From an uncultured Flavobacteriales bacterium (GTDB lineage: Bacteria; Bacteroidota; Bacteroidia; Flavobacteriales; BACL11): 64,000 nt of DNA. Both the position numbers and the translations under genes were made by a program. The stretch covers positions 8,300-72,299 of the forward strand of contig CAJQIZ010000024.1 of assembly GCA_905478555.1 (NCBI GenBank), in the 5' to 3' direction. The notes under the pieces are model-generated. The model saw only the letters and a list, made by a program, of their open reading frames with translations. It was not told the origin of the DNA and made no database searches. Shown here in pieces: positions 23,184-53,677 of this stretch. The stretch's first letter is position 1. Every line of letters begins with the position of its first letter.

Positions 23184-23207
23184 AGGTTCGAATCCTGCTA
23201 CCCCGAC
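23184..23207 (+). repeat. att core copy 1: tRNA-Pro 3' fragment AGGTTCGAATCCTGCTACCCCGAC
   Basis: T-loop TTCGAAT plus acceptor strand TACCCCGA of Bacteroidota tRNA-Pro; begins immediately after the M28 TAA, 5' tRNA half absent. Confidence 0.85.
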
Positions 23208-23213
23208 ACTTTT

Positions 23214-23241
23214 CTCCCCGAAAATCACTGATTTTCGGGAG
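23214..23241 (+). terminator. hairpin just inside the island's left end
   Basis: cccgaaaatc-act-gattttcggg stem; no strong U tail. Confidence 0.45.
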
Positions 23242-23534
23242 TAACACACTGATTACCAAGCCCAAGAACATAAGATTTAGAAATTATTTTATAAAATAAT
23301 TTTTTACCCCCTTTTATCAGATAATGCCACCAAAAAAAATGTAAAACGGTGCAAATTCTGGTGAAAGAAAATTGGAGTAAAAATTTTCTTCTTTTTTCAT
23401 CATTAAAAAAATCATCTTTTTGCATCTGTAAACGTATATCTTTAAAGATAATTTATATTTATTTTTAAAGATAACTTATTGATAATCAATTTATTAAATG
23501 GTAACTATATTGTATAATTTAATAAATTTGTAAG

Positions 23535-24779
23535 ATGAAAAAACAGTTATTAGTAAGCTTCTTGGCAAGAAAATCAATGATGAAGAAAAATGGCATGGCG
23601 CCAATTTATTGTCGTGTGAGATATGACGACACCACAACTAAGTTTAGTACTAAAATAGATGTGCCGTATATAAATTGGGATTCCAAAAGAACACGCGTAA
23701 TAGGTAATAGTAAAAAAGCAATGAATTTGCAATTAGAAACGATTCGTATAGAAATAATAGAGAAATACGAAGAGCTTACTAAAGCGAATGTAGTAGTTAC
23801 TTCCAAAAAAATAGTAGATTACTATAAAAATGAAATGGTTATTATGAATTCTATAGTAAATGTAGTTATAGAACATAATAAAAACATGAAATCTCTAATT
23901 GGCAAAGAATACTCTTATGGCTCTTTTAAAAATTATAAAACGACTCTTAAGCATTTACGTAGTTATATTAAAGAAACTTATAGTAAAAAAGACGTATTAC
24001 TAAGTAAAGTAGATTATCATTTTATCTCTCATTTTTCTCTCTATATTTTGAAAGAGACAGAATGTAATAATAATGGTATGATGAAGCATATGCAAAGGCT
24101 TAAGAAAATTATTAATTTCTCTCTTAAGAATAACTACATAACAAATGATCCATTTACTGGATTTAAAATAAGCTTTAAAAGAACAAATAGAGTTTACTTA
24201 ACAAAAGAAGAATTACTTACTATTTCGCAAGTAACATTAAATGAAAGCTTAAGTAAAGTAAGAGACGTTTTTTTGTTCTCTTGCTACACGGGTCTTTCGT
24301 ACGTAGATTTATACAATTTGAAAAAAGAAAACATAAAGAGCGGTAATGATGGATTAGAGTGGATTTACATAAAGCGTAGTAAAACAAACATTCCTTCTAA
24401 TTTACCTCTCTTGCCACCTGCTTTCTCTCTTTTGAAAAAATATAGAGAAATAGAGAAGAAAAATAGAGAGAACAAAGAGAACGCAAGAGAAAAAATAGAA
24501 AGAAATAGAGAAAATAGAGTGTTTCCAATGATTAGTAATCAAAAGACAAATAAAGCTCTTAAAGAAATTTCTCTTTTATGTAATTTTAATAAGAAGATTA
24601 CTTTTCATAGTGCTCGCCATACTTTTGCTACGACCGTTACTTTAACAAACGGAGTGCCTATAGAAACAGTCTCTAAAATGCTTGGACATAATAATATAAG
24701 AACTACTCAAATTTATGCTCGAGTAATTGATTCAAAAATTAGTTCTGATATGCTTATTTTAAGAAATAAAATATTTTAA
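23535..24779 (+). CDS. Bacteroidota tyrosine integrase (arm-binding + SAM-like + catalytic domains)
   Basis: APIYCRV arm domain, YTGLSYVD, RSKT, FHSARHTF, MLGH, TQIYA. Confidence 0.93.
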   Translation: MKKQLLVSFLARKSMMKKNGMAPIYCRVRYDDTTTKFSTKIDVPYINWDSKRTRVIGNSKKAMNLQLETIRIEIIEKYEELTKANVVVTSKKIVDYYKNEMVIMNSIVNVVIEHNKNMKSLIGKEYSYGSFKNYKTTLKHLRSYIKETYSKKDVLLSKVDYHFISHFSLYILKETECNNNGMMKHMQRLKKIINFSLKNNYITNDPFTGFKISFKRTNRVYLTKEELLTISQVTLNESLSKVRDVFLFSCYTGLSYVDLYNLKKENIKSGNDGLEWIYIKRSKTNIPSNLPLLPPAFSLLKKYREIEKKNRENKENAREKIERNRENRVFPMISNQKTNKALKEISLLCNFNKKITFHSARHTFATTVTLTNGVPIETVSKMLGHNNIRTTQIYARVIDSKISSDMLILRNKIF

Positions 24780-24849
24780 TTATTAACAAGACTATAGAAT
24801 AAATGAAACATTATTGAGAAACAAATAATTAAATTATAAATTTGCTAGT

Positions 24850-26085
24850 ATGTCTAAAAAAATAAAAGTAATTGAATTATTTGCTGGCGTTGGAGGATTT
24901 CGTCTTGGATTAGAGAAGAGTAATTATAAAATTGTTTGGAGTAACCAATGGGAACCGTCAACCAAGAAGCAACATGCCTCAATGGTTTATGAAGCACGTT
25001 TTGGAAAAGCAAATCACTCAAACGAAAATATCAATGAGGTTGTATCTAGAAATGTAGAGGAAATTCCAGATCATGATTTATTAGTTGGTGGATTTCCTTG
25101 TCAGGATTATTCTGTTGCAACTACATTACATAATTCAAAAGGGTTAAAAGGTAAAAAAGGAGTTCTTTGGTGGTCAATTCATAAAATTCTAGAAAACAAG
25201 AAGAATAAACCAAAATATTTGTTTTTAGAAAATGTTGATAGGCTTCTAAAATCACCAGTTAGTCAAAGAGGGCGTGATTTTGCAGTAATGCTACAAAGTT
25301 TAAATAATTTGGGATATGCAGTAGAATGGAGAGTAATAAATGCAGCAGAATACGGAATGCCACAGAGAAGAAGAAGAATTTTCTTTCTTGCTTATCATAA
25401 ATCTACAGAAGTTTATAAAACACTTCAAAAGTCTAATAAAATCGATTGGATTATAAAAGAAGGAACGATTGCTAGTGCTTTTCCAGTCATTCAATCAAAT
25501 GTAATGCAAGAATTTCAGTTAAGAGGTAATTTGGTAGAAATAACCAACGAATTCAATAAAACTGGCAAAATATCACCTTTCCTAAATACCGGATTATTGA
25601 TTAAAGGAAAAGTTTATACAACAAAAACGAAGCCTAAATATAATGGCCAAAAAACTGTATTAGGTGATATATTACAAAATGGAGAAGTGAGCTCTGAATT
25701 CTTTATTGATGAAAATGACAAGCCTAAATGGGAATACTTAAAGGGTGCTAAAAAAGAAAAAAGAAAAACTAAGAATGGATTTGAATACAATTATACTGAA
25801 GGCGGAATGATTTACCCTGATGCATTAGATAATGCCTCAAGAACTATAATTACTGGAGAAGGAGGAAAATCTCCTTCAAGATTTAAACATGTAGTTGATT
25901 CTGATAGAGGTTTAAGAAGATTAACACCTGTCGAATTAGAAAGACTGAATATGTTTCCTATTAACCACACTAAACTTGATAATATTACTGATGCAAAAAG
26001 AGCATTCTTTATGGGGAATGCACTTGTTGTTGGAGTGGTAGAGAAAATAGGAGATGTTCTTTTTAGAAAGATAAGATCTCTCTAG
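24850..26085 (+). CDS. dcm: DNA (cytosine-5)-methyltransferase, M.Sau3AI-like
   Basis: ELFAGVGG, GGFPCQDYS, ENVDRLLKSP..QRGRDF, QRRRR, MGNA; strongly resembles M.Sau3AI as recalled. Confidence 0.92.
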   Translation: MSKKIKVIELFAGVGGFRLGLEKSNYKIVWSNQWEPSTKKQHASMVYEARFGKANHSNENINEVVSRNVEEIPDHDLLVGGFPCQDYSVATTLHNSKGLKGKKGVLWWSIHKILENKKNKPKYLFLENVDRLLKSPVSQRGRDFAVMLQSLNNLGYAVEWRVINAAEYGMPQRRRRIFFLAYHKSTEVYKTLQKSNKIDWIIKEGTIASAFPVIQSNVMQEFQLRGNLVEITNEFNKTGKISPFLNTGLLIKGKVYTTKTKPKYNGQKTVLGDILQNGEVSSEFFIDENDKPKWEYLKGAKKEKRKTKNGFEYNYTEGGMIYPDALDNASRTIITGEGGKSPSRFKHVVDSDRGLRRLTPVELERLNMFPINHTKLDNITDAKRAFFMGNALVVGVVEKIGDVLFRKIRSL

Positions 26086-26674
26086 TTTCTTTTTCTATTA
26101 TGAAACTTTCAGGTGAGGTAAGTCCAATTAGAACTATTGGTGTTGATATAAGATTATGATATGGTTTAAAGTATTCCTTAAATTTTTCAAAAGTACCAAT
26201 TGCTCCATCAAAATTTCCTGATTTCTTTAGTTCTTCAGTAGCAACAATTATTATTCCTAATTCTGTTTTGATTTCTTTTTCTACATGATTTAATTCACTT
26301 GCTAAAACAGGCTTCATGATATTATGAGCAGTTGCTTCTTGGTGATTAAATGCAACTTCAATTGAAATGAAGTTTTTTGCAAAATCTAACCTCCATCTAC
26401 TTCTGTTGGATTTATTATAAGGAGGCTCTTTAAATAATCCACTTTCAGAATTCCAACCTAAATTTTCTAACCTTTCCTTAAGTAAACTATTAATTGGTTC
26501 AGACAAACTCTTAATATTTTTTCTTGTTGTTTTTCTAGAGTTAAATTCTTTAATCAGATCTGAATCAGAGATAGAATCAATAACCTTAATTATTTGACTA
26601 TAATCTTTTTTAAACTTATTGTCATGTTCAACTAATACGTTTGAGTTCCTATGATTATAGATTGAGTAGTTCAT
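26063..26674 (-). CDS. BglII/BstYI-family type II restriction endonuclease
   Basis: RLDFAKNFISIEVAFNH PD-(D/E)xK-like core, LGIIIVAT; convergent with the MTase. Confidence 0.72.
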   Translation of the reverse strand: MNYSIYNHRNSNVLVEHDNKFKKDYSQIIKVIDSISDSDLIKEFNSRKTTRKNIKSLSEPINSLLKERLENLGWNSESGLFKEPPYNKSNRSRWRLDFAKNFISIEVAFNHQEATAHNIMKPVLASELNHVEKEIKTELGIIIVATEELKKSGNFDGAIGTFEKFKEYFKPYHNLISTPIVLIGLTSPESFIIEKETREILSF

Positions 26675-26704
26675 ATTTTTTTAATAGAGAAATAATTTAG
26701 ATGC

Positions 26705-28561
26705 TTAATATTTAAAGTCAGTGATATAAGCCTTCTTTATGTAATCTGCTAATATTTTTGTTCTTTTGTCAATCTCTGAAGGGCTGGATATAAAGTCTGA
26801 AGTAGTTAGATTTTCTTCATTTAACTTTTCAAAATTATAATCTCCATCTGTCTTTTCATTTGTTTCAATAAATTCTTTAGTAATTAGAGTTTTGGATTCC
26901 GCATTATTGAGTAGTTTTAATTTCTCTACGTGAGATTTATTTTGCATTTCACCATTTAATGATGCATCTATAATTAAGATATTGCCTAATTTATTTTCGT
27001 GTGCTCTACTAATATCTTTCGAGATGTCCCAATTGTCTTGTGCTTCCTGTGGCATGTAATGTTCTATAGAATGATTTTGTTGATTATGGAATGATCCATT
27101 TAAAACAAGTTCCTCAATATCACCAAAAATAGTATGAATAAGATGTTTGTTATTATTGTCATGTTTTATTTTATTGATTCCCTCATAATATTCTTCATTT
27201 AGGACTTTATAAACATCGATAGTTTTCTTTACATATCCATCAAAATGATTCTTGAAGGCTTTTTTTACATCTTTGTTGGACTTTTCATGGTCTTGAGGAA
27301 AATCAATTAATGATTTATTTATTGCTTTTGACAACTTATACATTGCAGGCGTAAAATCTCTTGTAGGAAATGAAAAGATATTAAAATGTAAAAATGAGAA
27401 AACAAAATGTTTCCTAAATATCTTTACAAGATAATTATCTTTATTTATAATTGAAACTTGTCTTTCATTTAATTTTGTTTCATAATCTAAAAGTGTAAAG
27501 ATTGGAATAATCCAAGATTTATTTCTTATAAATCTAAAACAATTCAAATATCTCATATAAACAGCTGAGTGCCTTGGATTTGAATTTGCAGACGGGTAAT
27601 GAACTTTAAATGAATTATAGTCTTTACAGTTAAATATGTTTTCAAATGTTTTAGATGATAATTCTAAATCATGAAAGAATTCTAACCATTTATCAGAATC
27701 ACTCTTGAATTCTTTTTTCATAGAAGTAAATAGATGTTTTTTTCCAACAGGTTTGAATTTTGCAATCCAATAATAATGCATAAACTCAATAAATGAGAAT
27801 CCTGTTAATGATAATCTATTATTTATTTTATTCCATCTATCATCTAAATCTTCAAGATCTTTATCATTAAGTCTGGCATGTTTAATTAATATATTCTTTA
27901 CCAATTCTGAGGCATTTAATTGTTCTCCTCTATGATTAACTGACTCAAAAATTTCAATACCTAAGACTATGTCAGAAATAGTCATCTCTACAACTTCTAG
28001 TTCAGATAACCTTTGTTTATAAAGTTTGTAAAATTCATCAGTATTATTATTGGTGTTTAGATAATCTTCTACTTGCGTATAAAAGTATAAATATGCTTTA
28101 TAAATCTCCTTTTCTATTTTAGTATTTCCATTTTCTGGTTCTTTATGAATATCACTGTTTTGAAAATTGAGAGTAAAATAATTTGCAATAGTTTTACTTA
28201 CAATTAATTTAGGTTTATCGTCAAATCCAATAATAAATTGTCTTAAGATTGCTCCTGCATTTATAACATCATCATTTTCCACTAATACATCTATAATCGC
28301 TTTTGATAAAATAGTTAATGTTGTAATCCTTTGCTGTCCGTCAAAAATCTGTTTTGGTTCTCCAATTATTTCTGGCTCTAGGAAGATAAAACTTCCAAGA
28401 AATGTGTCTTGGTCTTCTATTGAGAAAAATGAGTTCCACATTGTTTCCCAGTTTCCCTTTGACCATGTATATGACCTTTGGTTATATGGTATCTTATTTG
28501 GTATATTAGTGGAAATTATCTCATAAAGTGATTTTGTTGTACTTATAACTTTTTTTGACAT
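26705..28561 (-). CDS. DUF262-DUF1524 (GmrSD-like) nuclease
   Basis: QRSYTW, DGQQR, FESVNHRG; C-terminal SIEHYMPQ...LGN...N HNH. Confidence 0.88.
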   Translation of the reverse strand: MSKKVISTTKSLYEIISTNIPNKIPYNQRSYTWSKGNWETMWNSFFSIEDQDTFLGSFIFLEPEIIGEPKQIFDGQQRITTLTILSKAIIDVLVENDDVINAGAILRQFIIGFDDKPKLIVSKTIANYFTLNFQNSDIHKEPENGNTKIEKEIYKAYLYFYTQVEDYLNTNNNTDEFYKLYKQRLSELEVVEMTISDIVLGIEIFESVNHRGEQLNASELVKNILIKHARLNDKDLEDLDDRWNKINNRLSLTGFSFIEFMHYYWIAKFKPVGKKHLFTSMKKEFKSDSDKWLEFFHDLELSSKTFENIFNCKDYNSFKVHYPSANSNPRHSAVYMRYLNCFRFIRNKSWIIPIFTLLDYETKLNERQVSIINKDNYLVKIFRKHFVFSFLHFNIFSFPTRDFTPAMYKLSKAINKSLIDFPQDHEKSNKDVKKAFKNHFDGYVKKTIDVYKVLNEEYYEGINKIKHDNNNKHLIHTIFGDIEELVLNGSFHNQQNHSIEHYMPQEAQDNWDISKDISRAHENKLGNILIIDASLNGEMQNKSHVEKLKLLNNAESKTLITKEFIETNEKTDGDYNFEKLNEENLTTSDFISSPSEIDKRTKILADYIKKAYITDFKY

Positions 28562-28657
28562 TATTTTATTCTTTTAATTTAATGCTAATTTATATATTTA
28601 TTTTTTAAAATAACGAATTACTCTTAAATTTCAATTATTTTTTTAATTTTGGCTTAC

Positions 28658-28756
28658 TAGATTGATTAGCGGTGCAAAAAGCGGAGCAATTTTTAGTTTG
28701 AATGCTTGCTGTAATCATGTAAAAAGGTGTTAGGTTGTAATCCTGCTACCCCGACT
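28658..28756 (+). repeat. 99-bp arm + att core copy 2 (island right end)
   Basis: 96/99 identical to the reverse complement of 52167-52265 by manual alignment. Confidence 0.92.
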
Positions 28757-28973
28757 AAAAAATTCATGTTGTGTGACCTGGATATGGGATGCGAATTCAG
28801 GAGTTTGGGCTAAGATGGGTAGTATGACCTCTATAGGAGAGATAGGATCATTTGACAAAAAGATAATGAAAGTAGTTGATATCTTAGTTAGAGAATCTAA
28901 AGATTTAAAAAATCAAACTCTCTTTTATATCTATGACGATGGAACAGTAAAGAAAAGAATAGTTATAGAATAA
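28757..28973 (+). pseudogene. 5'-truncated remnant of a YDDGTV-tail secreted protein
   Basis: Ends KVVDILVRE...LFYIYDDGTVKKRIVIE like the 51-53 kb proteins; no leader or signal peptide; frame runs back into the core. Confidence 0.75.
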
Positions 28974-29033
28974 AATTATTTTAAAAAAGTTGTTTTAATT
29001 AGACAATCTAATTAATTCTTTAAGTTTGCTTTT

Positions 29034-29810
29034 ATGAAAAAAACCCTCATTCTGTCTCTTATACAATCCAATATTTTTTGGGAAGATGTAGATAAAAACC
29101 TTCTTCATCTTGAAGAATTAATATCAAAAAATTCGAATACAGATATTATTCTACTACCTGAAATGTTTAATACTTCTTTTTGTCCAAAATCTAATCATTT
29201 AGCAGAAACTATGAACGGCAAAACGGTGCGTTGGATGAATGAAATTGCTAGAAAGAAAGGATGTGCTATTGCTGGAAGTTTAATGATTTCAGAAGATGAA
29301 AAGGTTTATAATCGCCTAGTTTGGATTTCAAAAAATGGAGCAATACACACTTATGATAAACATCATTTATTCTCTTTAATTAAAGAAGAAAGATACATAA
29401 GTAAAGGAGAAGAAAGGTTAATTGTAGAGATAGAGGGATGGAAAATCTGTCCACTTATTTGTTACGATTTGCGTTTCCCTGTTTTTAGTAGAAATGATGT
29501 AGATTATGATGTACTGATTTATTTAGCAAATTGGCCTGTTAAAAGAATTGAGGCTTGGGATACCCTTCTAAAAGCTCGTTCTATTGAAAATCAGTGTTAC
29601 ACCATTGGGGTGAATAGAGTAGGAGAAGATGGAAACGGAATTCTTTTTAATGGTCACACCAAAGTGTTTGATGCTTTTGGTAACGAATTACTTTCTGCAA
29701 CAGAAAATGAAATAGAGGTGCTTCAAATAGAAATTAGCTTAGAAGATTTAAAGTTAAAAAGAAGGCAGATGAATTTCTTACAAGACAGAGATGATTTTAC
29801 TCTAACGTAA
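29034..29810 (+). CDS. omega-amidase YafV-like nitrilase family amidohydrolase
   Basis: LPEMF, YDKHHLF, ICYDLRFP, ARSIENQ. Confidence 0.9.
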   Translation: MKKTLILSLIQSNIFWEDVDKNLLHLEELISKNSNTDIILLPEMFNTSFCPKSNHLAETMNGKTVRWMNEIARKKGCAIAGSLMISEDEKVYNRLVWISKNGAIHTYDKHHLFSLIKEERYISKGEERLIVEIEGWKICPLICYDLRFPVFSRNDVDYDVLIYLANWPVKRIEAWDTLLKARSIENQCYTIGVNRVGEDGNGILFNGHTKVFDAFGNELLSATENEIEVLQIEISLEDLKLKRRQMNFLQDRDDFTLT

Positions 29811-30840
29811 TCCACTCTAACTCTATGTCCCAATTGGAGCGAATGGTTATTTTTTCATGAAAATGATATGTTTTTTCTGATTGTTTCTTCTCAGAAAAAT
29901 TCCCTGTATCCCAATAACCATTATCATTTTCATCCTGAAAAGCTCTTAAAGTATATTCTCCTGTGGAAATGTTTTTTAGCGTAAAGTTAAAAGTATTCTC
30001 AAATTTTTCTTGAACAATAACTTTATCTGCTTTTAATAGTTGAAGTACAATATTTCCACTAAAATCGGAATTTAAAGTCAAGTTTCCACCTTCTGTTATT
30101 GTTGTATCTTTCAATATCTCTGTAGAATCAATTTCGTATAAAGGATTAAAAGTATAAAGTTTAATTGAGGTGTCTACACCTGCAACAAATAATTTATCTG
30201 AAAAAGAAATAATTTCATCTTCATGATAAAAATAATCATCCCCAGAAAGAGAAACTACTTTGTAACTTCCCTCAATTATATTATTGAAAACGAAATAGCC
30301 GTCTATATTAGATTTACTCACATAATTTGGAGATGTTTTAAAGATTATAGAATCCTGAACATCAAATTGATACAGTAAAACCCAATGGTTTTTTTCATCT
30401 TCCTTTGTAAGAGAGTTCTGTAGAGAAACCTCTAAAGGTTGTAAGTTTATTTCTTTATTAAAAGTATAAATCTCATCAATTAATTTGGTTAAAACATTTC
30501 CTTCTGTAAGGTCTTTTATACAATTTCCAAAACTTACTTCATAATGTAAATTAGTATCTATATAGTCCTTAATAATTATCTCTAATACATTTCCCTTTAC
30601 TTTATGAGAAACTCCATTTAAAGGCGGTGAAATATAGAAATTACCTACAAATTTATGTTCTTGTATTCTTTCATCAAATACATAAGTAAGCTTACTTTCT
30701 TTATTGTTATCTATTTCAATTTGATGAAAGTGATCAATACAACGTGGAGCCTCTTGGTCTTTCTCTCCTCCAGATGGCGCTACCATATTGGCGCATCCGC
30801 TAAATAGTAAAACAAAAAAAATAGAGAGGTGTAATTTCAT
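29797..30840 (-). CDS. Ig-like (Big_5) domain lipoprotein
   Basis: LFSGCA lipobox, PSGGEKD..AP, DENDNGYWDTG; start moved to 30840. Confidence 0.75.
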   Translation of the reverse strand: MKLHLSIFFVLLFSGCANMVAPSGGEKDQEAPRCIDHFHQIEIDNNKESKLTYVFDERIQEHKFVGNFYISPPLNGVSHKVKGNVLEIIIKDYIDTNLHYEVSFGNCIKDLTEGNVLTKLIDEIYTFNKEINLQPLEVSLQNSLTKEDEKNHWVLLYQFDVQDSIIFKTSPNYVSKSNIDGYFVFNNIIEGSYKVVSLSGDDYFYHEDEIISFSDKLFVAGVDTSIKLYTFNPLYEIDSTEILKDTTITEGGNLTLNSDFSGNIVLQLLKADKVIVQEKFENTFNFTLKNISTGEYTLRAFQDENDNGYWDTGNFSEKKQSEKTYHFHEKITIRSNWDIELEWITLE

Positions 30841-30856
30841 ATCAGCAAATATAACA

Positions 30857-31547: not shown

Positions 31548-31557
31548 AAATTAGCAT

Positions 31558-31585: not shown

Positions 31586-31594
31586 ACTATTATT

Positions 31595-44873: not shown

Positions 44874-46019
44874 TTACAATGAATCTAATGCCATTTTAAG
44901 GTCATCTACTAAATCTTCTATATCTTCAATACCAACGCTTAACCTGATAAGAGTGTCTACTACTCCTGTTTTTTCTCTTGCTTCTTTTGGTATGGCAGCA
45001 TGTGTCATAGAAGCAGGATGTCCTATTAAAGACTCCACTCCACCTAAACTTTCCGCTAGTGTAAAATAATGTGTTGTAGAAACTAAATTAATAGCATCTT
45101 CTAATTTATTACCTTTTAGATTGAAGGAAACCATCCCTCCAAAATCATCCATTTGTTTTTTAGCAATATCATGATTTGGATGATCCTCAAATCCTGGCCA
45201 ATATACCTCCCCTACTTTAGGATGTGTTTTAAGGAAGTTAGCAATTACTTTTCCGTTTTCACAATGGCGTTGCATTCTCAAGTGAAGTGTTTTTATCCCC
45301 CTCAATACTAAGAAACAGTCTTGTGGACCTGGTACTGCACCGCAAGAATTCTGAATAGCAAATAACTTTCCTGCTAATTTATCATCTTTACAAATAGCGG
45401 CTCCCATTACTACATCCGAATGACCTCCCATATATTTTGTTAAAGAATGCATCACAATGTCAGCACCCATATCTAATGGTCGTTGCAAATAAGGTGTCGC
45501 AAAGGTATTATCCACTACAAAAGTAAGATTATGTTTTGCAGAAATTTCGCCTAACTTTTCAATATCAATAATATTAAGCATTGGGTTTGTTGGAGTTTCT
45601 GCCCAAAGCATTTTTGTATTTTCATTAATTAAAGATTCAATTTTAGAACTGTCATCCATTCCTACAAAATGAAATTTAATTCCAAACGGCTCAAAAATAG
45701 AATTGAATATTCGGTAGGTACCACCATATAAATCGTTAGTTGAAATTACTTCATCTCCAGGTTTTAATAGTTTTATAATAGCATCAATTGCCGCTAATCC
45801 ACTTCCAAAACATAATCCGAATTCTCCATTTTCTAATTCAGCAAGGTTTTTCTCTAATGCATTTCTTGTAGGGTTTCCTGTTCTGGAATATTCATATCCT
45901 TTAAAATCTCCAGGGCTTGCTTGTTTGTATGTAGAGGTTTGAAAAATTGGAGTCATGATAGCTCCTGTTGAAGGATCCGCTTCCTGTCCAGCATGTATTG
46001 TTTTTGTTCCGAATTTCAT
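44874..46019 (-). CDS. cystathionine gamma-synthase/lyase (Cys/Met metabolism PLP enzyme)
   Basis: YSRTGNPT, DNTFATP, HSLTKYMGGHSD, AESLGG. Confidence 0.93.
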   Translation of the reverse strand: MKFGTKTIHAGQEADPSTGAIMTPIFQTSTYKQASPGDFKGYEYSRTGNPTRNALEKNLAELENGEFGLCFGSGLAAIDAIIKLLKPGDEVISTNDLYGGTYRIFNSIFEPFGIKFHFVGMDDSSKIESLINENTKMLWAETPTNPMLNIIDIEKLGEISAKHNLTFVVDNTFATPYLQRPLDMGADIVMHSLTKYMGGHSDVVMGAAICKDDKLAGKLFAIQNSCGAVPGPQDCFLVLRGIKTLHLRMQRHCENGKVIANFLKTHPKVGEVYWPGFEDHPNHDIAKKQMDDFGGMVSFNLKGNKLEDAINLVSTTHYFTLAESLGGVESLIGHPASMTHAAIPKEAREKTGVVDTLIRLSVGIEDIEDLVDDLKMALDSL

Positions 46020-46101
46020 CTTTTTAAGTCTTGTTTTTATAAGGTTAGCAAACCTACAAAAATTTCAGTATTTAATTTTACTTTTGTAAAAAATTAATCT
46101 G

Positions 46102-47007
46102 TTGAATAAAACCCTTTTAGCTCATCTTTCTTTATTGTTTGCTAATTTAATTTATGCTTTAAATTACACTTTTGCTAAAGATGTAATGCCAGAGTACATA
46201 CAACCATCCGGATTTATTTTATTAAGGGTAATAGGAGCTTTTTTATTATTTACTCTTAGTTATTTACTATTTATTAAGGAAAAGGTAGAAAAAGAAGATA
46301 TCATCCGCTTTGCTATATGTGGACTTTTTGGTGTGGCAATTAACCAGTTATTATTTTTTGAAGGATTAAATCTCACTACACCTATCAATGCGGCAATTAT
46401 TATGACTTCCAACCCGATTTTGGTAATAATTATGTCCTTATTAATTTTGAAAGAAAAAATAAATTTCCGAAAAGGATTAGGAATTATTTTAGGAATTGTT
46501 GGAGCTTCTTCTTTAATATTAAAAGCGGGGGATGTTAATCTCATTTCAGATACACAATTGGGAAATATATTCGTTTTTTTAAACGCTACTAGTTATGGTT
46601 TGTATTTGGTATTAGTACAACCTCTCATGAAAAAATACAAACCTATAACGGTTATGTTTCATGTATTTGCTTTTGGTTTAATATTAGTTTTTCCATTCGG
46701 TATTTCCACATTATCTGATGTCAATTGGAACGAAATACCAACTAATATCTACTGGGAAATTTTATTTGTAGTGGTTTGCACCACCTTTATTGCTTATTTA
46801 TTTAATTCTTCTGCTCTAAAGGAGTTGAATCCAACCACAGTGAGCATTTATATTTACCTACAGCCTATTTTAGCTACTCTATTTGCTATAATACGGAAGA
46901 GTGATAGCTTAGATAAACAAAAAATTATCTCTTCTGCAATTATATTTTTAGGGGTTTATTTAGTAAGTGTTCGTTCTAAAAAGCCAACTAAGAAGAAACT
47001 TTCCTAA
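46102..47007 (+). CDS. EamA/DMT family transporter
   Basis: About 10 TM segments in two EamA repeats, YIYLQP. Confidence 0.88.
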   Translation: MNKTLLAHLSLLFANLIYALNYTFAKDVMPEYIQPSGFILLRVIGAFLLFTLSYLLFIKEKVEKEDIIRFAICGLFGVAINQLLFFEGLNLTTPINAAIIMTSNPILVIIMSLLILKEKINFRKGLGIILGIVGASSLILKAGDVNLISDTQLGNIFVFLNATSYGLYLVLVQPLMKKYKPITVMFHVFAFGLILVFPFGISTLSDVNWNEIPTNIYWEILFVVVCTTFIAYLFNSSALKELNPTTVSIYIYLQPILATLFAIIRKSDSLDKQKIISSAIIFLGVYLVSVRSKKPTKKKLS

Positions 47008-47028
47008 ATTTGCCAAAAATATTTTAAG

Positions 47029-47928
47029 ATGATACAATCTATGACGGGCTATGGAAAAGCCGAACTTAACCTAACAAATGCTAACTTTACTATTGAAGTA
47101 AAGTCCTTAAATTCCAAGCAAATTGATGCCAATCTAAAGATGTCTTCTGTTTATAGAGACAAAGAAATTGGTTTAAGAAAACTTTTATCAGAGAAATTAC
47201 AAAGAGGAAAAATTGAACTTTCTATTTGGAGAGAGAAGTCAGAGTCTTCTCCAAAATTCACATTAAATAAAGAGGTGATAAAAGACTATCATAATCAGAT
47301 TGAAGCCCTAAGAAAAGAATTGGGATACAAAGCTCCATTTTCTAAAATAGAAACGGGAATCTATTCTGATATTATGCAAACTATGGTTCATATGCCAGAA
47401 ATAATGATAAAGGGAGAAGAAAAATCGGAGGATAATGAATGGGGGGAGATACAGAAAGGAGTAGATATAGCAATAACAAACTTACTGCAATTCCGATTGG
47501 ATGAAGGGAAAAAATTAGAGGACGATATTACAAATAGAATAAATAAATTATCTACTCTATTGATTGACATTGCTCCTTTTGCAAATGTAAGAATTGAAAA
47601 AATAAAAAAGAGCTTGTCAGATAAATTAGCGGAGATTGAAATTAAAAATATTGATGAGAATCGATTTGAACAAGAGTTAATTTACTATTTAGAGAAACAA
47701 GACATTACAGAAGAGCAGGTGAGATTAGATGCTCACTTGACTTACTTTATAGAAACTATGAAAGCGGATGCTCCAAATGGAAAGAAATTAGGTTTTATTG
47801 GTCAAGAAATAGGTAGAGAAATAAATACTATTGGATCGAAATCATCAGACGCAGAAATGCAAAAATTAGTAGTTCAGATGAAAGATGAATTAGAGAAAAT
47901 AAAGGAGCAATTACTAAATATTTTATAG
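47029..47928 (+). CDS. YicC/YloC family endoribonuclease
   Basis: MIQSMTGYG, REINTIGSK, KEQLLN. Confidence 0.93.
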   Translation: MIQSMTGYGKAELNLTNANFTIEVKSLNSKQIDANLKMSSVYRDKEIGLRKLLSEKLQRGKIELSIWREKSESSPKFTLNKEVIKDYHNQIEALRKELGYKAPFSKIETGIYSDIMQTMVHMPEIMIKGEEKSEDNEWGEIQKGVDIAITNLLQFRLDEGKKLEDDITNRINKLSTLLIDIAPFANVRIEKIKKSLSDKLAEIEIKNIDENRFEQELIYYLEKQDITEEQVRLDAHLTYFIETMKADAPNGKKLGFIGQEIGREINTIGSKSSDAEMQKLVVQMKDELEKIKEQLLNIL

Positions 47929-48491
47929 TGGGAAAGTTAATTGTAATATCAGCACCATCTGGTTCAGGGAAAACTTCTATTGTTAGTTATTTACTAAAAA
48001 ATATGGAAACACTTTCTTTCTCCATTTCTGCTTGTAGTAGAGTGAAAAGAGAAAATGAAATAGAAGGAAAAGATTATCATTTTTTAGGAATAGAAGGATT
48101 TAAGAGGAGTATAAAAGAAGATTCCTTCTTAGAATGGGAGGAAGTATATAAAAATCAATTTTACGGAACTTTAAAATCCGAAGTGGAGAGAATTTGGAGT
48201 GAAGGAAAAACTGTAATTTTTGATGTAGATGTTGTGGGCGGATTAAATATTAAAAAACAATATCCAAAAGAATGTTTATCTATTTTTATTATGCCACCAT
48301 CAGTAGAGGTCTTAGCAGAAAGATTGATTGGGAGAGGGTCGGAATCAGATGAAAGTTTACAAAAAAGATTAGATAAAGCAGAGGAAGAAATATCTCAAAA
48401 TCAAGAGTTCGATACAGTGATTTTAAATGACGATTTATCCATAGCTTGTGAGGAAACGCAGGAAGTAATTACAAATTTTATAAAATCTTAA
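47928..48491 (+). CDS. gmk: guanylate kinase
   Basis: APSGSGKT, EGKDYHF, YGT. Confidence 0.96.
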   Translation: MGKLIVISAPSGSGKTSIVSYLLKNMETLSFSISACSRVKRENEIEGKDYHFLGIEGFKRSIKEDSFLEWEEVYKNQFYGTLKSEVERIWSEGKTVIFDVDVVGGLNIKKQYPKECLSIFIMPPSVEVLAERLIGRGSESDESLQKRLDKAEEEISQNQEFDTVILNDDLSIACEETQEVITNFIKS

Positions 48492-48492
48492 A

Positions 48493-49065
48493 ATGAAGAT
48501 AGGTCTATTTTTCGGTTCGTTTAATCCCATGCATGTAGGGCATAAAATAATAGCATCTTATATGGCAGAATTTTCTGACTTAGAAAAAGTATTATTTATT
48601 GTTTCTCCTCAAAACCCCTTAAAAAAGAAAAAGACTTTACTAGATCAAAACCATAGATTACAAATTATTAAAGCGGAGGTGGAAGATATTCCTCATCTAG
48701 AAGTTTCAGATATTGAATTTAGTATGCCACAACCCTCTTTTACTATTGATACCTTAGTAAGGTTAAAAGAGCAACAACCTGAACATGAGTTTGCACTTAT
48801 TTTGGGTGCAGATAATCTGCAAAATTTTCATAAGTGGAAGAATTTCGAACAGATTTTGGAAGACTACTCTTTATATGTTTACCCCAGACATGGTTATCAG
48901 GTGGAAGGAACACACAAAAATATACACCTTATTAAGGGAGTCCCTCAGATGGAGATATCGGCTTCTTTTATTCGTAATTCTATAAAACAAGGCAAAGATA
49001 TTTCTTATTTAATGACAGAGAAAGCTTGGAAATATACAGATGAAATGAATTTTTACAAAAAGTAA
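48493..49065 (+). CDS. nadD: nicotinate-nucleotide adenylyltransferase
   Basis: GSFNPMHVGH, ISASFIR. Confidence 0.95.
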   Translation: MKIGLFFGSFNPMHVGHKIIASYMAEFSDLEKVLFIVSPQNPLKKKKTLLDQNHRLQIIKAEVEDIPHLEVSDIEFSMPQPSFTIDTLVRLKEQQPEHEFALILGADNLQNFHKWKNFEQILEDYSLYVYPRHGYQVEGTHKNIHLIKGVPQMEISASFIRNSIKQGKDISYLMTEKAWKYTDEMNFYKK

Positions 49066-49066
49066 A

Positions 49067-49465
49067 ATGAAAATATTAGACTTGAAATATAAGACTCTTA
49101 TTTTTTTGATTTCCATTTTAGGAATCTCTTCTTGCAGCTCTACAAAAAAAGTTGTGATAGAGAATGAAAACAGATCATTCGATTTATCAACTAACAGAGG
49201 AATTCCAAGGACTGCTTTTACAGGTTGGTGGGTGTATGGAGAGGGACATCACATTTTTAAAGATGAAGAAACATTGGAAGAATATGATTTAATTTTCCCT
49301 GAAGAAAATATGGAAGAATTAGTTGAACTTTATTTGGCAGTTTGTGAGATGGAATATTTCCCCATGGAATGCGAAATGACCGGTTATATTTTCTATATAG
49401 ATAAAGTACCGGTTTTACAAGTTTCTAATTTTGAGATCCTATATATTCAAGGTTGCGGGGAGTAA
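49067..49465 (+). CDS. hypothetical lipoprotein
   Basis: ISSC lipobox; open 132-aa frame in operon. Confidence 0.55.
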   Translation: MKILDLKYKTLIFLISILGISSCSSTKKVVIENENRSFDLSTNRGIPRTAFTGWWVYGEGHHIFKDEETLEEYDLIFPEENMEELVELYLAVCEMEYFPMECEMTGYIFYIDKVPVLQVSNFEILYIQGCGE

Positions 49466-49538
49466 TCACTTCTTTACTCCATTATCTAATCTATTATCCT
49501 AACTTTGCAAAAAATAATTCCACAAAAGGAATTCTCAT

Positions 49539-50789
49539 ATGAAATTTGAAGATTTAAAATTACACCCTACTTTACTAAAAGCGGTAAAGGACCAAAACTA
49601 TATTACACCAACTACTATTCAGCAAAAAGCAATTCCTCTAATATTAAACCGAAAAGATGTTTTGGGTACCGCTCAAACAGGTACTGGGAAAACAGCTGCA
49701 TTTGCTTTACCTATATTACATCATTTGATGAATGAAAAGAAAGAGGGTAATAAGTCAAAAATAAAAGCATTAATAGTAACTCCAACTCGTGAGCTTGCAA
49801 TACAAATTAGTGAAAACTTTACAGATTATTCAAAACACAACAACATAAAAAATACTGTAATTTATGGTGGGGTAAAACAGATAAAACAAGTTAAAAGGTT
49901 AGAAGCTGGAGTAGATGTATTGATTGCAACTCCTGGTAGGTTATTAGACTTGATGGGACAAGGTTTTATTTCTTTAAAAGATGTTTCTTATTTTGTGTTA
50001 GATGAGGCCGACAGAATGTTAGACATGGGTTTTATTAATGATATAAAAAAATTATTACAGAAGTTGCCTAATAAGCGTCAATCGTTATTCTTCTCGGCTA
50101 CTATGCCTTCTAATATCCTTAATTTATCTAATACTATTCTTAACAATCCTCAAAAGGTAGCAGTGCATCAAGTTTCTACTACTGCTGACACTATTCAGCA
50201 GTTTATTTATTACACTAATAAATCAGAAAAAAATGATTTGTTATTACACATCTTAAAAGATGAAAAGATCAATCAACTCCTTCTTTTTTCTAGAACTAAA
50301 AGAGGTGCAGATAGAATTGTAAAAAGATTATCGCAGCAGAAAATTAAGTCAGCTGCTATTCATGGTGACAAATCTCAGCCCCAAAGACAGAAAGCCTTAC
50401 AATCTTTTAAAAACTGGGAGATTAGAGTATTGGTAGCAACAGATATTGCTGCAAGAGGAATAGATATTGATAAATTAAGTTACGTACTGAATTATGATAT
50501 ACCTAATGAACCAGAAACTTATGTACACCGTATTGGTAGATGTGGTAGAGCTGGAGAAAAAGGGATTTCTATTTCTATTTGCGAACCAGAAGAAAATATT
50601 TTTGCTAAGGATATTGAAAAGCTAATAAAGAAAAATATTCAAGAAATTAAAAACCATCCTTTTCCTCAAACAGAAAAACCAATGAATGCTAAGCAAAAAA
50701 AGGAGTTTGAAAAAGAAAAAAATAGAAAAAAACAAGAATTTTTTGCCAACAGAAAGAAGAATAGAAACTCTACTAATGGTAGGAGGTAA
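49539..50789 (+). CDS. DEAD-box RNA helicase (RhlE-like)
   Basis: AQTGTGKT, PTRELA, DEAD, SAT, HRIGR. Confidence 0.95.
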   Translation: MKFEDLKLHPTLLKAVKDQNYITPTTIQQKAIPLILNRKDVLGTAQTGTGKTAAFALPILHHLMNEKKEGNKSKIKALIVTPTRELAIQISENFTDYSKHNNIKNTVIYGGVKQIKQVKRLEAGVDVLIATPGRLLDLMGQGFISLKDVSYFVLDEADRMLDMGFINDIKKLLQKLPNKRQSLFFSATMPSNILNLSNTILNNPQKVAVHQVSTTADTIQQFIYYTNKSEKNDLLLHILKDEKINQLLLFSRTKRGADRIVKRLSQQKIKSAAIHGDKSQPQRQKALQSFKNWEIRVLVATDIAARGIDIDKLSYVLNYDIPNEPETYVHRIGRCGRAGEKGISISICEPEENIFAKDIEKLIKKNIQEIKNHPFPQTEKPMNAKQKKEFEKEKNRKKQEFFANRKKNRNSTNGRR

Positions 50790-50819
50790 TTTATTATAAA
50801 CAACTATAAGTTTATTAAT

Positions 50820-51059
50820 ATGATAGAGGAAAATAACAAAGATAATTCTCAAGTAAATAATCCATTACACGGAATAAGATTAATTGATATACTAGATTTT
50901 TTGGTGAAGGAATATGGATGGAAAGAATTAGGATATGAAATTAAAATCAATTGTTTTATCAGTAACCCTTCTATAAAATCGAGCCTTAAGTTTTTAAGAA
51001 AAACCCAATGGGCAAGAGATAAAGTAGAAAAGCTTTATTTGAAAACAATTAAAGAATAA
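50820..51059 (+). CDS. VF530/DUF2132 family protein
   Basis: NPLHG...YGW...[17 protein letters not shown]. Confidence 0.88.
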
Positions 51060-51207
51060 AATCAAAAGTTTAAACTTCTTAGTGACTATATAAATGAACA
51101 TCACCATGAGAGTGTTCATTTGTGTCTGACTTAATGGCTAGATCCTCTTGATTTTCCTCTGGCATCTCATGTGGAATTTCTGATTAGAAAAAACTTTTAA
51201 AAATAAT

Positions 51208-52122
51208 TTATTCAATAATTATTCTCTTTTCTACCGTTCCATCATCATAAAGATAAAATAGTGGAGAATTTGGTTTTTCATTAACTGTCCTGCCTAATAA
51301 ATCAATAATCTTATAAGGTCTTTCATTGTATAATTGATTATCTAATCCAGAAAATATTTTTTCTATACTAAACTTATTAAACCCATATACACCGTAAGAT
51401 ATTCCATTTCCCATACCTCTCCAAGAATACCAATGTATATTATTATCCCAAGTATCATAACAACCAAACTCTTGAGTAGAATTATCATATCCTATACCTA
51501 CTACAAAGTGATCTGTCAAATCATCCCCATCAGTATCGACTAATATAATTACTGGTTTATTATTATCAATTTCCATCTTATATTCATCCCAGCTAATACT
51601 AGAATAATACTCATATTCTGTATTTGTAATATAATTTGGATTTCTAAAATATATATAATCCTCAAAGGCAGTTCCAATGTCACTAGACCAACTCCATCCC
51701 CAATAATTACCACAGACACTCATTGATGTTTTCATAAAATCTGCAATTGAATTATTCTGATGAGGAATACCTGTTTCAGAAATGTCTTGTAATAAATTTG
51801 GGTAATAATCCTGTGGTAATGAATAATCATCATAATGTTCATTACTAGCAATTAACATATTGATATTATTTGTTTGAAGCAACGTGCTATCATCATACAG
51901 ATCATAAAACCCATGCAAATCGTAGAAACCAACAATCATGCCTAATGCTGTAGGGCCACAGCCTCTATGCCATATATATGTAGGCATCTCATCTATTAAA
52001 ACAACGTTACTTTTATTTAGATTCCCAATAGGCACATTTAATGGTCTCATATTATAGCCTCTACTTTGTTGTGCAAAAACTAGAGTAGGTATAAAAAATG
52101 ATATTAGCAATAGTTTTTTCAT
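51208..52122 (-). CDS. secreted C39-like/papain-fold peptidase with YDDGTV C-terminal tail (cassette B)
   Basis: Signal peptide; GCGPTA (Cys), DHFVV (His), YDTW (Asp); tail KIIDLLGR...YLYDDGTVEKRIIIE. Confidence 0.72.
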   Translation of the reverse strand: MKKLLLISFFIPTLVFAQQSRGYNMRPLNVPIGNLNKSNVVLIDEMPTYIWHRGCGPTALGMIVGFYDLHGFYDLYDDSTLLQTNNINMLIASNEHYDDYSLPQDYYPNLLQDISETGIPHQNNSIADFMKTSMSVCGNYWGWSWSSDIGTAFEDYIYFRNPNYITNTEYEYYSSISWDEYKMEIDNNKPVIILVDTDGDDLTDHFVVGIGYDNSTQEFGCYDTWDNNIHWYSWRGMGNGISYGVYGFNKFSIEKIFSGLDNQLYNERPYKIIDLLGRTVNEKPNSPLFYLYDDGTVEKRIIIE

Positions 52123-52167
52123 AAAGCAAACTTACAAAAAATAATGAAAAATATTGAAGTGAAAAAA
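52123..52167 (-). promoter_or_regulatory. 45-nt cassette leader with TAAGTTTG -7 promoter box
   Basis: 39/45 identical to 53609-53653; Bacteroidota TAnnTTTG consensus 4 nt before the ATG. Confidence 0.8.
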
Positions 52168-52265
52168 GTCGGGGTAGCAGGATTACAACCTAACACCTAT
52201 TTACATGATTACAGCAAGTTTTCAAACTAAAAATTGCTCCGCTTTTTGCACCGCTAATCAATCTA
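52167..52265 (-). repeat. 99-bp arm + att core copy 3 (junction of cassettes A and B)
   Basis: Reverse complement 96/99 identical to 28658-28756. Confidence 0.92.
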
Positions 52266-52324
52266 CTAAAACAAACTTAAAAAAATAATTGGAATATCTG
52301 ATTAGAAAATGCTTTTTAAAATAA

Positions 52325-53608
52325 TTATTCTACAACTATTCTTTTTTCTACTGTTCCATCATCATAGATTTCAATAAATGGAGTGTGAGTTTGAGGTTTA
52401 GTTTCTTTTCCTAGTATATCAACTGTCTTTTGTAGGTTTCTGTTTGGATTTATAGGAATATTGAATGTTGAGGTTATGTTTCCATTTCCATCTGTTTTTA
52501 TTAGATAGATATCACTAAATCCCCATCCTCCAGTAGTTCCTGTAATGATATAGCCTCCATCAGTGGTTTGTTGAACAGAATGACCTACGTCATCATCTGT
52601 TCCTCCAAATGTTTTACTCCATTGTTCTGTTCCATTACCATCTGTTTTTATTAGATAGACATCAAGACCTCCACTTCCTAAAGATTCTGTACTTCCTGTA
52701 ATGATACAACCTCCATCAGTGGTTTGTTGAACAGAACTACCTATATCATCTCCTACTCCTCCAAATATTTGACTCCATTGTTCTATACCATTTCCATCTG
52801 TTTTTATTAGATAGAGATCATGGTTAAATGCTAAATTATAATCTGATCCTGTAATGATATATCCTCCATCAGCGGTTTGTTGAACAGAATAACTGAAAGA
52901 GGAATGAGTACTACTAAAGTTTTCAGTCCATTGCTCTATTCCATTACCATCTGTTTTTATTAGACAGGTATAAAAGGAAGATCCAGACTTTGTACGTCCT
53001 GTAATAATATATCCTCCATCATTAGTTTGTTGAACGGAAGAACCCCAATCATCTCCTGTACCTCCAAATGTTTTACTCCATTGTTCTGTTCCATTACCAT
53101 CTGTTTTTATTAGATAGACATCAAGACCTCCACTTCCTAAAGACTCTGTACTTCCTGTAATAATATATCCTCCATCAGAGGTTTGTTGAACTGATGTACC
53201 ATAATCATAACTTGTTCCTCCAAAAGTTTGACTCCATAACTCTACTCCATTAACATCTGTTTTGATGAGATAGACATCATCCCCATTCGCAAATGAAGTT
53301 GTATATCCCGTTATGATATAACCTCCATCAGTGGTTTGTTGAACTGATTTACCTTCATCAGCATCTGTTCCTCCAAAAGTTTGACTCCACTGATCTACTC
53401 CATAAGCATCTGTTTTTAGGAGATAAACATCACTAGATCCATTTCCATTTCCATAAGAATGGGTTAATCCTGTAATGATATAACCTCCATCTGTGGTTTG
53501 TTGGACAGATTGACCAACATCTGCTGATGCTCCTCCAAAAGTTGTTTCCCATCCTTGCCCAAATCCAATCAAAGGCACACATAGTAAAATCAATAGTAAT
53601 TTTTTCAT
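52325..53608 (-). CDS. secreted beta-propeller-like repeat protein with YDDGTV C-terminal tail (cassette A)
   Basis: Seven ~51-aa repeats WSxTFGG..D.G.SVQQTTDGGYIITG..DVYLIKTDGNG; tail KTVDILGK...IYDDGTVEKRIVVE. Confidence 0.85.
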   Translation of the reverse strand: MKKLLLILLCVPLIGFGQGWETTFGGASADVGQSVQQTTDGGYIITGLTHSYGNGNGSSDVYLLKTDAYGVDQWSQTFGGTDADEGKSVQQTTDGGYIITGYTTSFANGDDVYLIKTDVNGVELWSQTFGGTSYDYGTSVQQTSDGGYIITGSTESLGSGGLDVYLIKTDGNGTEQWSKTFGGTGDDWGSSVQQTNDGGYIITGRTKSGSSFYTCLIKTDGNGIEQWTENFSSTHSSFSYSVQQTADGGYIITGSDYNLAFNHDLYLIKTDGNGIEQWSQIFGGVGDDIGSSVQQTTDGGCIITGSTESLGSGGLDVYLIKTDGNGTEQWSKTFGGTDDDVGHSVQQTTDGGYIITGTTGGWGFSDIYLIKTDGNGNITSTFNIPINPNRNLQKTVDILGKETKPQTHTPFIEIYDDGTVEKRIVVE

Positions 53609-53653
53609 AAAGCAAACTTACAGAAAATTATGGGAAATGTTGAAGAGAAAAAA
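53609..53653 (-). promoter_or_regulatory. 45-nt cassette leader with TAAGTTTG -7 promoter box
   Basis: Same length as, and 39/45 identical to, 52123-52167. Confidence 0.8.
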
Positions 53654-53677
53654 GTCGGGGTAGCAGGATTATAACCT
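53654..53677 (-). repeat. att core copy 4 AGGTTATAATCCTGCTACCCCGAC
   Basis: Begins 1 nt after the sdhB stop codon; the 17-bp core is exact. Confidence 0.88.

Follow-up and report, generated by a model that had tools for sequence, protein, structure and literature searches.

Here we describe a family of repeated attachment-site modules in a 64,000-nucleotide stretch of contig CAJQIZ010000024.1 (hereafter the window) from the draft genome of an uncultured Flavobacteriales bacterium. Each module joins a 17-nt core, identical to the 3′ end of tRNA-Pro, to a longer upstream arm, and the modules bound an integrase island as well as small integrase-less, usually single-gene units that form co-oriented arrays. 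These arrays are probably att-bounded cassette arrays of a cis-mobilizable type that belong to a family of tRNA-Pro islands, with homologous recombination in the arms contributing to their rearrangement. An earlier inspection of the letters (the sequence-only reading) had proposed that one island integrase acts in trans on dispersed tRNA-derived sites to insert and reshuffle single-gene cassettes in an integron-like manner.

The core 17-mer, AATCCTGCTACCCCGAC, occurs four times in the window, where 0 copies are expected and none appeared over 100 shuffles; beyond these four the window contains no match to it even at up to 2 mismatches. An exact match scan and inspection of the flanks confirmed the four copies at the places first reported, each preceded by AGGTTnn with nn being CG, GT, GT and AT for copies 1 to 4 in order. 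The assignment of the core to tRNA-Pro was also borne out, as the 17-mer forms the 3′ terminus of the sole tRNA-Pro(TGG) gene in the genome (C40:3746-3823; genomes, contigs and loci are given below by G, C and L numbers). This gene lies on another contig than the window, in which ARAGORN detected no tRNA, and the whole draft genome (1.79 Mb, 30.5% G+C) carries 11 exact 17-mers. Two of the window copies are heads lacking the arm, the first abutting the stop codon of an M28 peptidase gene and the second that of sdhB. The non-tRNA heads keep the dinucleotide that precedes the core in the tRNA itself and the arms nearly always carry GT at this position, which places the crossover in the 17-mer or at its edge. 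We ruled out that the M28-core-island junction (22622-23267) was an artefact of assembly joining, because independent contigs from two studies spanned it with 0 and 4 differences, and because the same core/arm architecture was found again across many independent assemblies.

Together with the arm, the 17-mer core makes up a repeat (arm+core) of about 117-135 nt. The 99-nt arm noticed in the sequence-only reading is real, and the window arms at 28602-28756 and 52167-52321 (pair I1) are 87% complementary over 155 nt. A BLAST search of the genome with the arm returned 26 matches, 21 of them arm-bearing and 5 core-only (tRNA included), and the arm+core copies were clustered, with ten in 16 kb of contig C30. 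Rather than dispersed single sites, as initially supposed, the copies are members of arrays at a few hotspots. Matches to the repeat were present in 28 of 61 related genomes, some of those in distant genomes spanning just the tRNA-like end, and in all six same-genus genomes, several in each. The best copies in other genomes were 90-95% identical to those of the window, and the M28 and SdhB proteins of the same-genus genomes were 71-88% identical. An arm 28-mer was found exactly in 13 stretches of uncultured Flavobacteriales metagenome-assembled genomes (MAGs) and in at least 118 marine metagenome contigs. Alignment of 51 distinct arms revealed ~135 nt conserved at 80-99%, extending from a promoter-like TAAGTTTG box at the 5′ side through the core. 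At window 28348-29015, the summed depth of contigs from other marine metagenomes reached up to ~5,500 over the arm, with neighbouring bins mostly below 100 and none above ~370; in one marine metagenome the arm-bin depth was ~100 times that of most neighbouring bins. This excess indicated that the module is very abundant across marine populations.

As the sequence-only reading had stated, copy 1 opens an integrase island; this island lies to the right of the M28 gene, spans 5.5 kb and is closed by the arm+core at 28739. Behind the 23191 (+) core lie the tyrosine integrase, a C5 methylase, a BglII-like endonuclease and GmrSD; the island carries restriction genes and no replication gene. The integrase matched PF00589 (1.3e-18), PF13102 (2.7e-15) and PF17293 (8e-12), an Arm-DNA-bind_5, SAM_5 and Phage_integrase composition, so that the catalytic, core-binding and N-terminal arm-binding domains of an arm-binding tyrosine integrase are all predicted to be present. 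Its translation shows HSARH and LGH...Y within the C-terminal HxxR...H...Y motifs, which we take to be the catalytic residues. It is the sole match of its kind in this genome. Against the IntI profiles the integrase scored 51.7 bits with TIGR02249 (cutoff 265) and 29.1 with NF011946 (cutoff 435), below every integron-integrase cutoff. A single-protein search for related integrase loci returned 7 distant loci and no close relative, and a search of solved structures gave merely generic matches to Xer and IntI catalytic domains.

The link between the integrase and tRNA-Pro was established in relatives. Integrase orthologs at 58-72% identity (G001, G035, G019, G010, G059) lie ~330 nt after a genuine tRNA-Pro in 5/5 cases, and these tRNA-Pro genes end in the core at their 3′ end, in agreement with the earlier proposal that the island integrase targets the core. 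In G027:C2, an integrase of 39% identity likewise lies ~330 nt after a real tRNA-Pro. Behind the integrases of the relatives follows cargo, often restriction systems, and the first arm+core comes next in 4/4 loci (G019, G010, G035, G027:C2). Integration at a tRNA 3′ end with a direct repeat at the far border, as expected of a tRNA island, was thus observed in the relatives; in the window the left repeat consists only of the 24-nt fragment and does not stand at a tRNA gene. Within one array, an arm+core is immediately followed by an island whose integrase belongs to a second family (40% identical). Cores are thus in use in three settings, at the tRNA, at a bare head and in the interior of an array. 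Pairs of direct repeats, 11 nt apart, lie on both sides of the core as putative arm sites, in the arm and in the stretch that separates core and integrase (P′), and are kept in 6/6 integrase loci. The 9-mer CGGTGCAAA is strongly enriched, with 19 occurrences in the 1.79-Mb genome, 14 of them in arms and one in P′ (window 23347). The C5 methylase (24850-26085) is 86% identical to that at L092:3465-4694 in the G019 tRNA-Pro island, the integrases of the two islands are 67-70% identical and the rest of their cargo differs, suggesting modular exchange of defence genes within the island family.

In G019 (L092), G010 (L095) and G027:C2 (L094) further short units follow, each closed by arm+core. These units, like those at window 52167-53677 and on C30, are att-flanked, carry no recombination genes and stand in tandem to an integrase element. 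The earlier notion of single-gene cassettes at tRNA-derived sites was upheld in this form, with integrase-less, usually single-gene units lying between arm+core copies in co-oriented arrays headed by a real tRNA-Pro or by its 24-nt fragment. All 41 metagenome contigs with at least two arms were co-oriented. The 53 metagenome units had a median length of 871 nt (quartiles 622-1320, values that the length of metagenome contigs biases downward), and their longest open reading frame ran with the array in 46 and against it in 5, with 2 units having none. Many units have their own promoter-like TAAGTTTG box upstream of the ATG. The units differ widely in cargo: genes of the C30 array code for a GNAT-like protein and a protein of 462 aa (minus strand) and for small membrane proteins and a lipoprotein (plus strand), and other cargo includes a photolyase-like pair and unrelated genes, some on the opposite strand.

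In the window, unit gene 1 and its arm+core make up a 1486-bp unit between two cores. This gene contains 6-7 tandem repeats of ~150-156 nt that are 60-89% mutually identical (window 52480-53543) and gave only weak NCBIfam matches to beta-propeller repeats; G005 and G020 have a homolog (53% identical) as the second unit behind their tRNA-Pro. The sequence following the 28739 core corresponds to the last 71 codons of a gene of the same secreted tail family. The claim that three core copies are each followed by a member of the YDDGTV-tail family therefore held in the window, which has two intact genes and one remnant, and failed as a general rule of cargo. The enrichment of units for such genes expected by the sequence-only reading was not found, since a Y.DGT..K-type tail occurred in a minority: 4/53 metagenome units, 4/17 units in relatives and 0/6 motif-defined units in this genome. 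Neither Pfam nor NCBIfam recognised the YDDGTV tail as a known secretion domain, and we make no claim from its resemblance to a type IX secretion C-terminal domain.

Table 1. Coordinates of the modules, island, units and inverted segment in the window.
Feature	Position	Strand	Description
Core 17-mer, copy 1	23191-23207	+	exact match scan
Core 17-mer, copy 2	28739-28755	+	exact match scan
Core 17-mer, copy 3	52168-52184	-	exact match scan
Core 17-mer, copy 4	53654-53670	-	exact match scan
Head core without arm, attL-like left island border	23184..23207	+	24-nt copy of tRNA-Pro T-arm/acceptor 3′ end; abuts stop codon of M28 peptidase gene
P′ region, core to integrase	23208..23534	+	conserved in 6/6 aligned integrase loci
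P′ arm-type direct repeats	23347-23355, 23358-23366		CGGTGCAAA and CTGGTGAAA, 11 nt apart
Tyrosine integrase	23535..24779	+	414 aa; Arm-DNA-bind_5, SAM-like and catalytic domains
C5 DNA methylase	24850-26085	+	island cargo (cargo block 24850..28561)
BglII-like restriction endonuclease	26063-26674	-	island cargo
GmrSD type IV restriction enzyme	26705-28561	-	island cargo
Arm+core module, attR-like right island border	28602..28755	+	core 28739-28755
Arm direct repeats	28669-28677, 28681-28689		GCGGTGCAA and GCGGAGCAA, within module 28602..28755
5′-truncated tail-family remnant	28756..28973	+	in frame from base after core to stop; ends YDDGTVKKRIVIE, then stop
Inverted segment, 23.4 kb	28756..52167		CN-hydrolase gene to RhlE-like helicase and C39-like gene; synteny against G004, G002, G009, G014
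Unit gene 2, C39-like peptidase	51208..52122	-	304 aa; ends YDDGTVEKRIIIE, then stop; promoter-like TAAGTTTG box before it
Arm+core module between unit genes 1 and 2	52167..52321	-	core 52168-52184
Unit gene 1, secreted repeat protein	52325..53608	-	427 aa; ends YDDGTVEKRIVVE, then stop
Head core without arm	53654..53677	-	abuts sdhB stop codon

Comparison of orthologous junctions demonstrated turnover of the units. Different cassettes at orthologous sites, a check that had been set beforehand, were found at three junctions. After the M28 gene this genome has the island, G004 a bare core with no island, G002 a degenerate core, G005 a head fused to a partial arm and then a two-gene unit, and G014, of another genus, no core. 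The sdhB and CN-hydrolase genes are adjacent with no core in G009 and G014 and adjacent with no arm/core match in G002; between them, G004 has a core, a 116-aa gene and a core, G003 two units, and this genome one unit and the remnant. At the C14:50865 junction this genome retains a degenerate half-core only, G003 a core with unrelated sequence behind it, G001 a partial core, and G004, G002 and G005 a core or degenerate core with different units, while G006 has nothing; in total a core or its remnant is present in 6/7 genus members, with differing units, and in 0/10 genomes of other genera. Units are also shared between contexts. The photolyase-like pair, which in this genome stands behind the 5S rRNA gene, is found in G002 at the C14 junction (89% identical), and a three-gene block is common to this genome and G027 (92% identical). 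In G005 and G020, which belong to different genera, 2.6 kb (L084:178-2807 and L093:4145-6773) are 99.4% identical and then diverge fully. This block contains tRNA-Pro and two units, starting ~60 nt before the tRNA-Pro core and ending just past the third core, and could be a recent transfer or a mis-binned contig.

The 23.4-kb inversion in the window is bounded by the inverted cores at 28739 (+) and 52168 (-), which its ends abut. In the order common to G014, G009, G004 and G002, the M28 gene is oriented towards the end of the 49465 gene (a few genes off in G009) and sdhB runs into the CN-hydrolase gene; undoing the inversion gives back both ancestral adjacencies, with an array inserted in each. 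The inversion could be a site-specific event, or equally a homologous one, given that the arms at its ends are 155 nt long and 87% identical.

Several further features were noted beside the arrays and junctions. Behind the tRNA-Pro on C40, a large, repeat-rich gene for a secreted protein (C40:1-3434) extends past the contig end, and the start of C30 (C30:3-860) falls within a similar gene; a single G019 contig carries both the tRNA-Pro flank and a gene of the C30 array. Considering the similar genes at the contig ends and the joined counterpart in G019, C40 and C30 may be neighbours, and the C30 array may be this genome's tRNA-Pro array. A second conserved leader, a ~13-nt palindrome (TATGCTTAGCATA-like) before the ATG, follows some cores (L084:1240-1300, L093:5207-5270, L095, L092, L088, L090, L094), ahead of homologs of the window's repeat protein among others, and may be a regulator binding site. 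A terminator-like hairpin with a ~35-nt motif ending TTCGAACTTTTTT recurs beside arrays in several genomes (L001 (C30):2500-2576, L096:6842-6900, L094, L099) and may represent a different att remnant or a terminator module. At the sdhA/sdhB position G003 carries flavoprotein and iron-sulfur genes of a different type (L085:299-2898), the large subunit at 24% identity and the small subunit without a match; G004 has the same small-subunit gene end at a contig edge (L156:7686-8024), and no SdhB ortholog was found in G003 or G004 at E<=1e-40. The M28-to-sdhB region has been repeatedly rearranged within the genus (L036, L037, L035; G006, G005), with the CN-hydrolase gene alone flipped in G006 and sdhB joined to genes from window 57-71 kb in G005.

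In the mechanism that we favour, the 17-mer would serve as the crossover core of the attachment site of a family of tRNA-Pro-targeting integrative islands, whose tyrosine integrase is of a Bacteroidota type and carries an arm-binding domain at its N-terminus. The stretch of ~100 nt that precedes the core would be the element-side (P) arm of this site, with its two direct arm-type repeats. This arm+core module would have multiplied to close dozens of small integrase-less, usually one-gene units, often equipped with the promoter-like box, that stand in co-oriented arrays behind an arm-less head, either tRNA-Pro or its 24-nt fragment after the stop codon of a housekeeping gene. Units are gained, lost and exchanged between loci, genomes and genera, probably by integrase recombination at the cores, in cis or in trans, from the island when one is present, and RecA-type recombination within the 90-95% identical arms would add to the integrase route. 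In the window we see such an island seated at a secondary head, a complete and a truncated unit, and 23 kb reversed between two modules of opposite orientation. The anatomy, the tie to the integrase in relatives, the turnover and the inversion are thus observed, and the action of the integrase on units that lack one, including action in trans, is what we infer.

Several observations weigh against this mechanism. It does not account for the origin of the 24-nt heads after stop codons at non-tRNA loci, the counterparts of which in other genera contain no similar sequence. Five of the six same-genus genomes (G002-G006), all of them array-bearing with 6 to >14 arm matches each and 81-99% complete, had no integrase match at E<=1e-20; binning of MAGs often loses integrase islands, so this absence is weak though real evidence. 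The P′ arm-type repeats found beside the integrase are missing from the small units. No circular unit was detected, as a terminal overlap of at least 20 nt was present in 0/80 metagenome contigs, and the arm 28-mer had 0 matches in viral contigs. The public runs (four, over window 21000-31000) consist of contigs that end at the repeat, which makes excision and inversion joints invisible in them; one run contained a weak joint that replaced 28757-29020 by 33 other letters, with a side of just 20 nt, and was not relied on, and two runs from other studies that contained the integrase had no or almost no cover over much of 27-28.3 kb and were not used as evidence. Finally, the identity between G005 and G020 stops inside the arm, ~60 nt before the core, and 8 of 15 internal breakpoints of near-identical blocks fell in the module, spread from -146 to +16, in a census of 15 usable ends whose resolution suffers from the extension of BLAST alignments through the 90-95% identical arms. 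The breakpoint inside the arm and the scatter of the others indicated that homologous recombination in the arms plays a part.

In a rival reading, the former att site now acts mainly as portable homology, perhaps as promoter or insulator too, and units are exchanged by RecA after DNA uptake with no need of an integrase. Besides the breakpoints just described and an inversion that could equally be homologous, the persistence of arrays in genomes without a detectable integrase and the even conservation of the full 135 nt, including the 5′ TAAGTTTG box, argue for it. We nevertheless consider it unlikely, because it explains neither the strict co-orientation behind an arm-less head nor the exact 17-nt core amid diverging flanks, and it leaves without explanation the one contig pair in which 100% identity stops at the last core base, the precise insertion of integrase islands at cores in three kinds of context and the arm-type motif common to the arm and P′. 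A somewhat poorer prospect still is that the arrays are passive debris of repeated full-island integrations at tRNA-Pro, in which the integrase ends were deleted and the units became fixed and immobile. As deletion would predict, the end unit of contig C21 retains ~110 nt of integrase-type P′ sequence after its core and no integrase; degenerate cores and truncated arms are common, most relatives lack an integrase match, and comparable remnants are described in the accessible text of the tycheposon and Dehalococcoides papers (bioRxiv 10.1101/2020.12.28.424599; PMC3146451). Debris would, however, hardly keep arms 90-95% identical across genera whose housekeeping proteins stand at 71-88%, random deletions would not give the conserved left end of ~50 nt that follows the core in many units, and identical or near-identical units occur in different contexts, with arrays at non-tRNA loci as well.

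Two further explanations appeared highly improbable to us. The repeats might be merely the conserved intergenic regions of a duplicated family of secreted proteins, as the two window genes and the remnant share a C-terminal tail and similar 5′ and 3′ flanks, and conservation can extend into the signal-peptide codons. The diversity of the cargo argues otherwise: unit genes are unrelated and lie on either strand, the same module closes a restriction-modification island, and its core is a piece of a tRNA, linked in relatives to an integrase. The module is also multi-copy, conserved and intergenic, with a promoter-like box upstream and a T-run after the core, as a small structured RNA or a self-moving element similar to a miniature inverted-repeat transposable element would be. 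An Rfam scan of three array loci yielded nothing relevant, single-sequence folding of modules with RNA rather than DNA energy parameters revealed no structure (z-scores -0.05, -0.48, +1.05 and +1.46), and RNAalifold, with RNA energy parameters as well, gave an energy of 0.0, no pairs and no consensus structure for the 51 arms on either strand. Both the small-RNA and the attC-like readings were dropped on the basis of these folds. In addition, genes are always gained and lost together with the module, the 41 multi-arm contigs are all co-oriented, and by-eye inspection of the alignment showed no terminal inverted repeats. The account that we prefer therefore remains that of att-bounded units of the tRNA-Pro island family, rearranged in part by recombination between their arms.

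The system resembles integrons in its co-oriented short, mostly single-ORF (open reading frame) units that end in a conserved module resembling a recombination site and in content that varies between relatives. Unlike integrons, it has no IntI and no attC hairpin, its site is a tRNA 3′ end with arm-type repeats, many of its units bring a promoter-like box, and its head is a tRNA or tRNA fragment instead of attI. A head integrase with attI and a Pc promoter driving promoterless cassettes was not found. With an integrase far below the IntI cutoffs and a module that does not fold, the system is not an integron, and the sequence-only reading was right in placing it outside the IntI and attC pair. 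A functional analogy goes further. It would have a single arm-binding integrase, on a defence island that is often absent, mobilise in trans dozens of single-gene cassettes with their own promoters, with the ~135-nt module in the role of attC, heads at tRNA-Pro and after housekeeping stop codons, and circulation between genera; we regard such integron-analogous capture as a tentative possibility.

Among known systems, the islands at ssrA of Dehalococcoides stand in tandem, separated by repeats of the ssrA 3′ end, about half of them without an integration module, and were discussed as cis-mobilizable elements (CIMEs) (PMC3146451, accessible text). Like the present arrays, they follow a tRNA-like gene, are parted by direct repeats of the 3′ end of that gene and have additional conserved sequence by the repeat, and those lacking an integration module were proposed to be mobilised with or by their neighbours. 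According to the same part of that paper, they differ in using a serine recombinase, in their size of several kb, in their location within <100 kb of one ssrA and in a cargo mostly of one type; here we find a tyrosine integrase with putative arm sites, one-gene units with a median of ~0.9 kb, 21 arm copies in the genome and arrays at several non-tRNA loci as well. The tycheposons of Prochlorococcus likewise reside in streamlined marine hosts, where tRNA-targeting tyrosine recombinases seed variable islands, with tandem elements parted by partial tRNAs, scattered partial tRNAs and plug-in cassette cargo (bioRxiv 10.1101/2020.12.28.424599). In contrast to our units they carry their own integrase and often a replication module, and the accessible text of that study describes no conserved long arm repeat bounding single genes. 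It reports tycheposon-like elements in Alpha-, Gamma- and Deltaproteobacteria, and the words 'Bacteroid' and 'Flavobacter' are absent from it.

Closer to the host lineage, IntDOT is a Bacteroides tyrosine recombinase with an N-terminal arm-binding domain that tolerates mismatches in the overlap region (PMC2817482, accessible text); by analogy, such tolerance could help the use of imperfect or secondary sites. The 10K island of Riemerella anatipestifer lies beside tRNA-Arg between 53-bp direct repeats, and its integrase and a 53-bp attP suffice for integration and excision (PMC6764341, accessible text). The IntDOT, NBU1 IntN1 and Riemerella elements are single islands or transposons, and the accessible parts of these papers describe no arrays of integrase-less single-gene units (PMC2817482, PMC6764341). 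The likeness of the window integrase to IntDOT and IntN1 consists in shared Pfam domains. Additive islands with cassettes at a tRNA have been described in Alteromonas, as far as the accessible text goes (PMC4119200). A literature search combining Flavobacteriaceae genomic island, tRNA-Pro and integrase found no paper, and further searches, judged by titles, abstract openings and accessible text, turned up analogues and no description of the arm+core module. What is new with respect to the known systems is the long arm as unit boundary, the single-gene scale, the copy number, the non-tRNA heads and the marine Flavobacteriales host.

The hosts are abundant uncultured ocean bacteria with genomes of ~1.2-2.1 Mb. 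Since these hosts are abundant and the arm depth in one marine metagenome is roughly 100 times that of most neighbouring bins, the module would mark a large and easily searchable pool of flexible genes, among them genes for defence systems and for proteins that are secreted or placed at the surface. Should the units not be mobilised, the arrays would still illustrate how an att site can take on a new role, as a boundary and a stretch of homology that shapes the plasticity of the genome. If they are mobilised at the cores, they would constitute a second, independently evolved route to integron-like cassette arrays, and would provide a compact pair of site and integrase for genetic tools in Bacteroidota.

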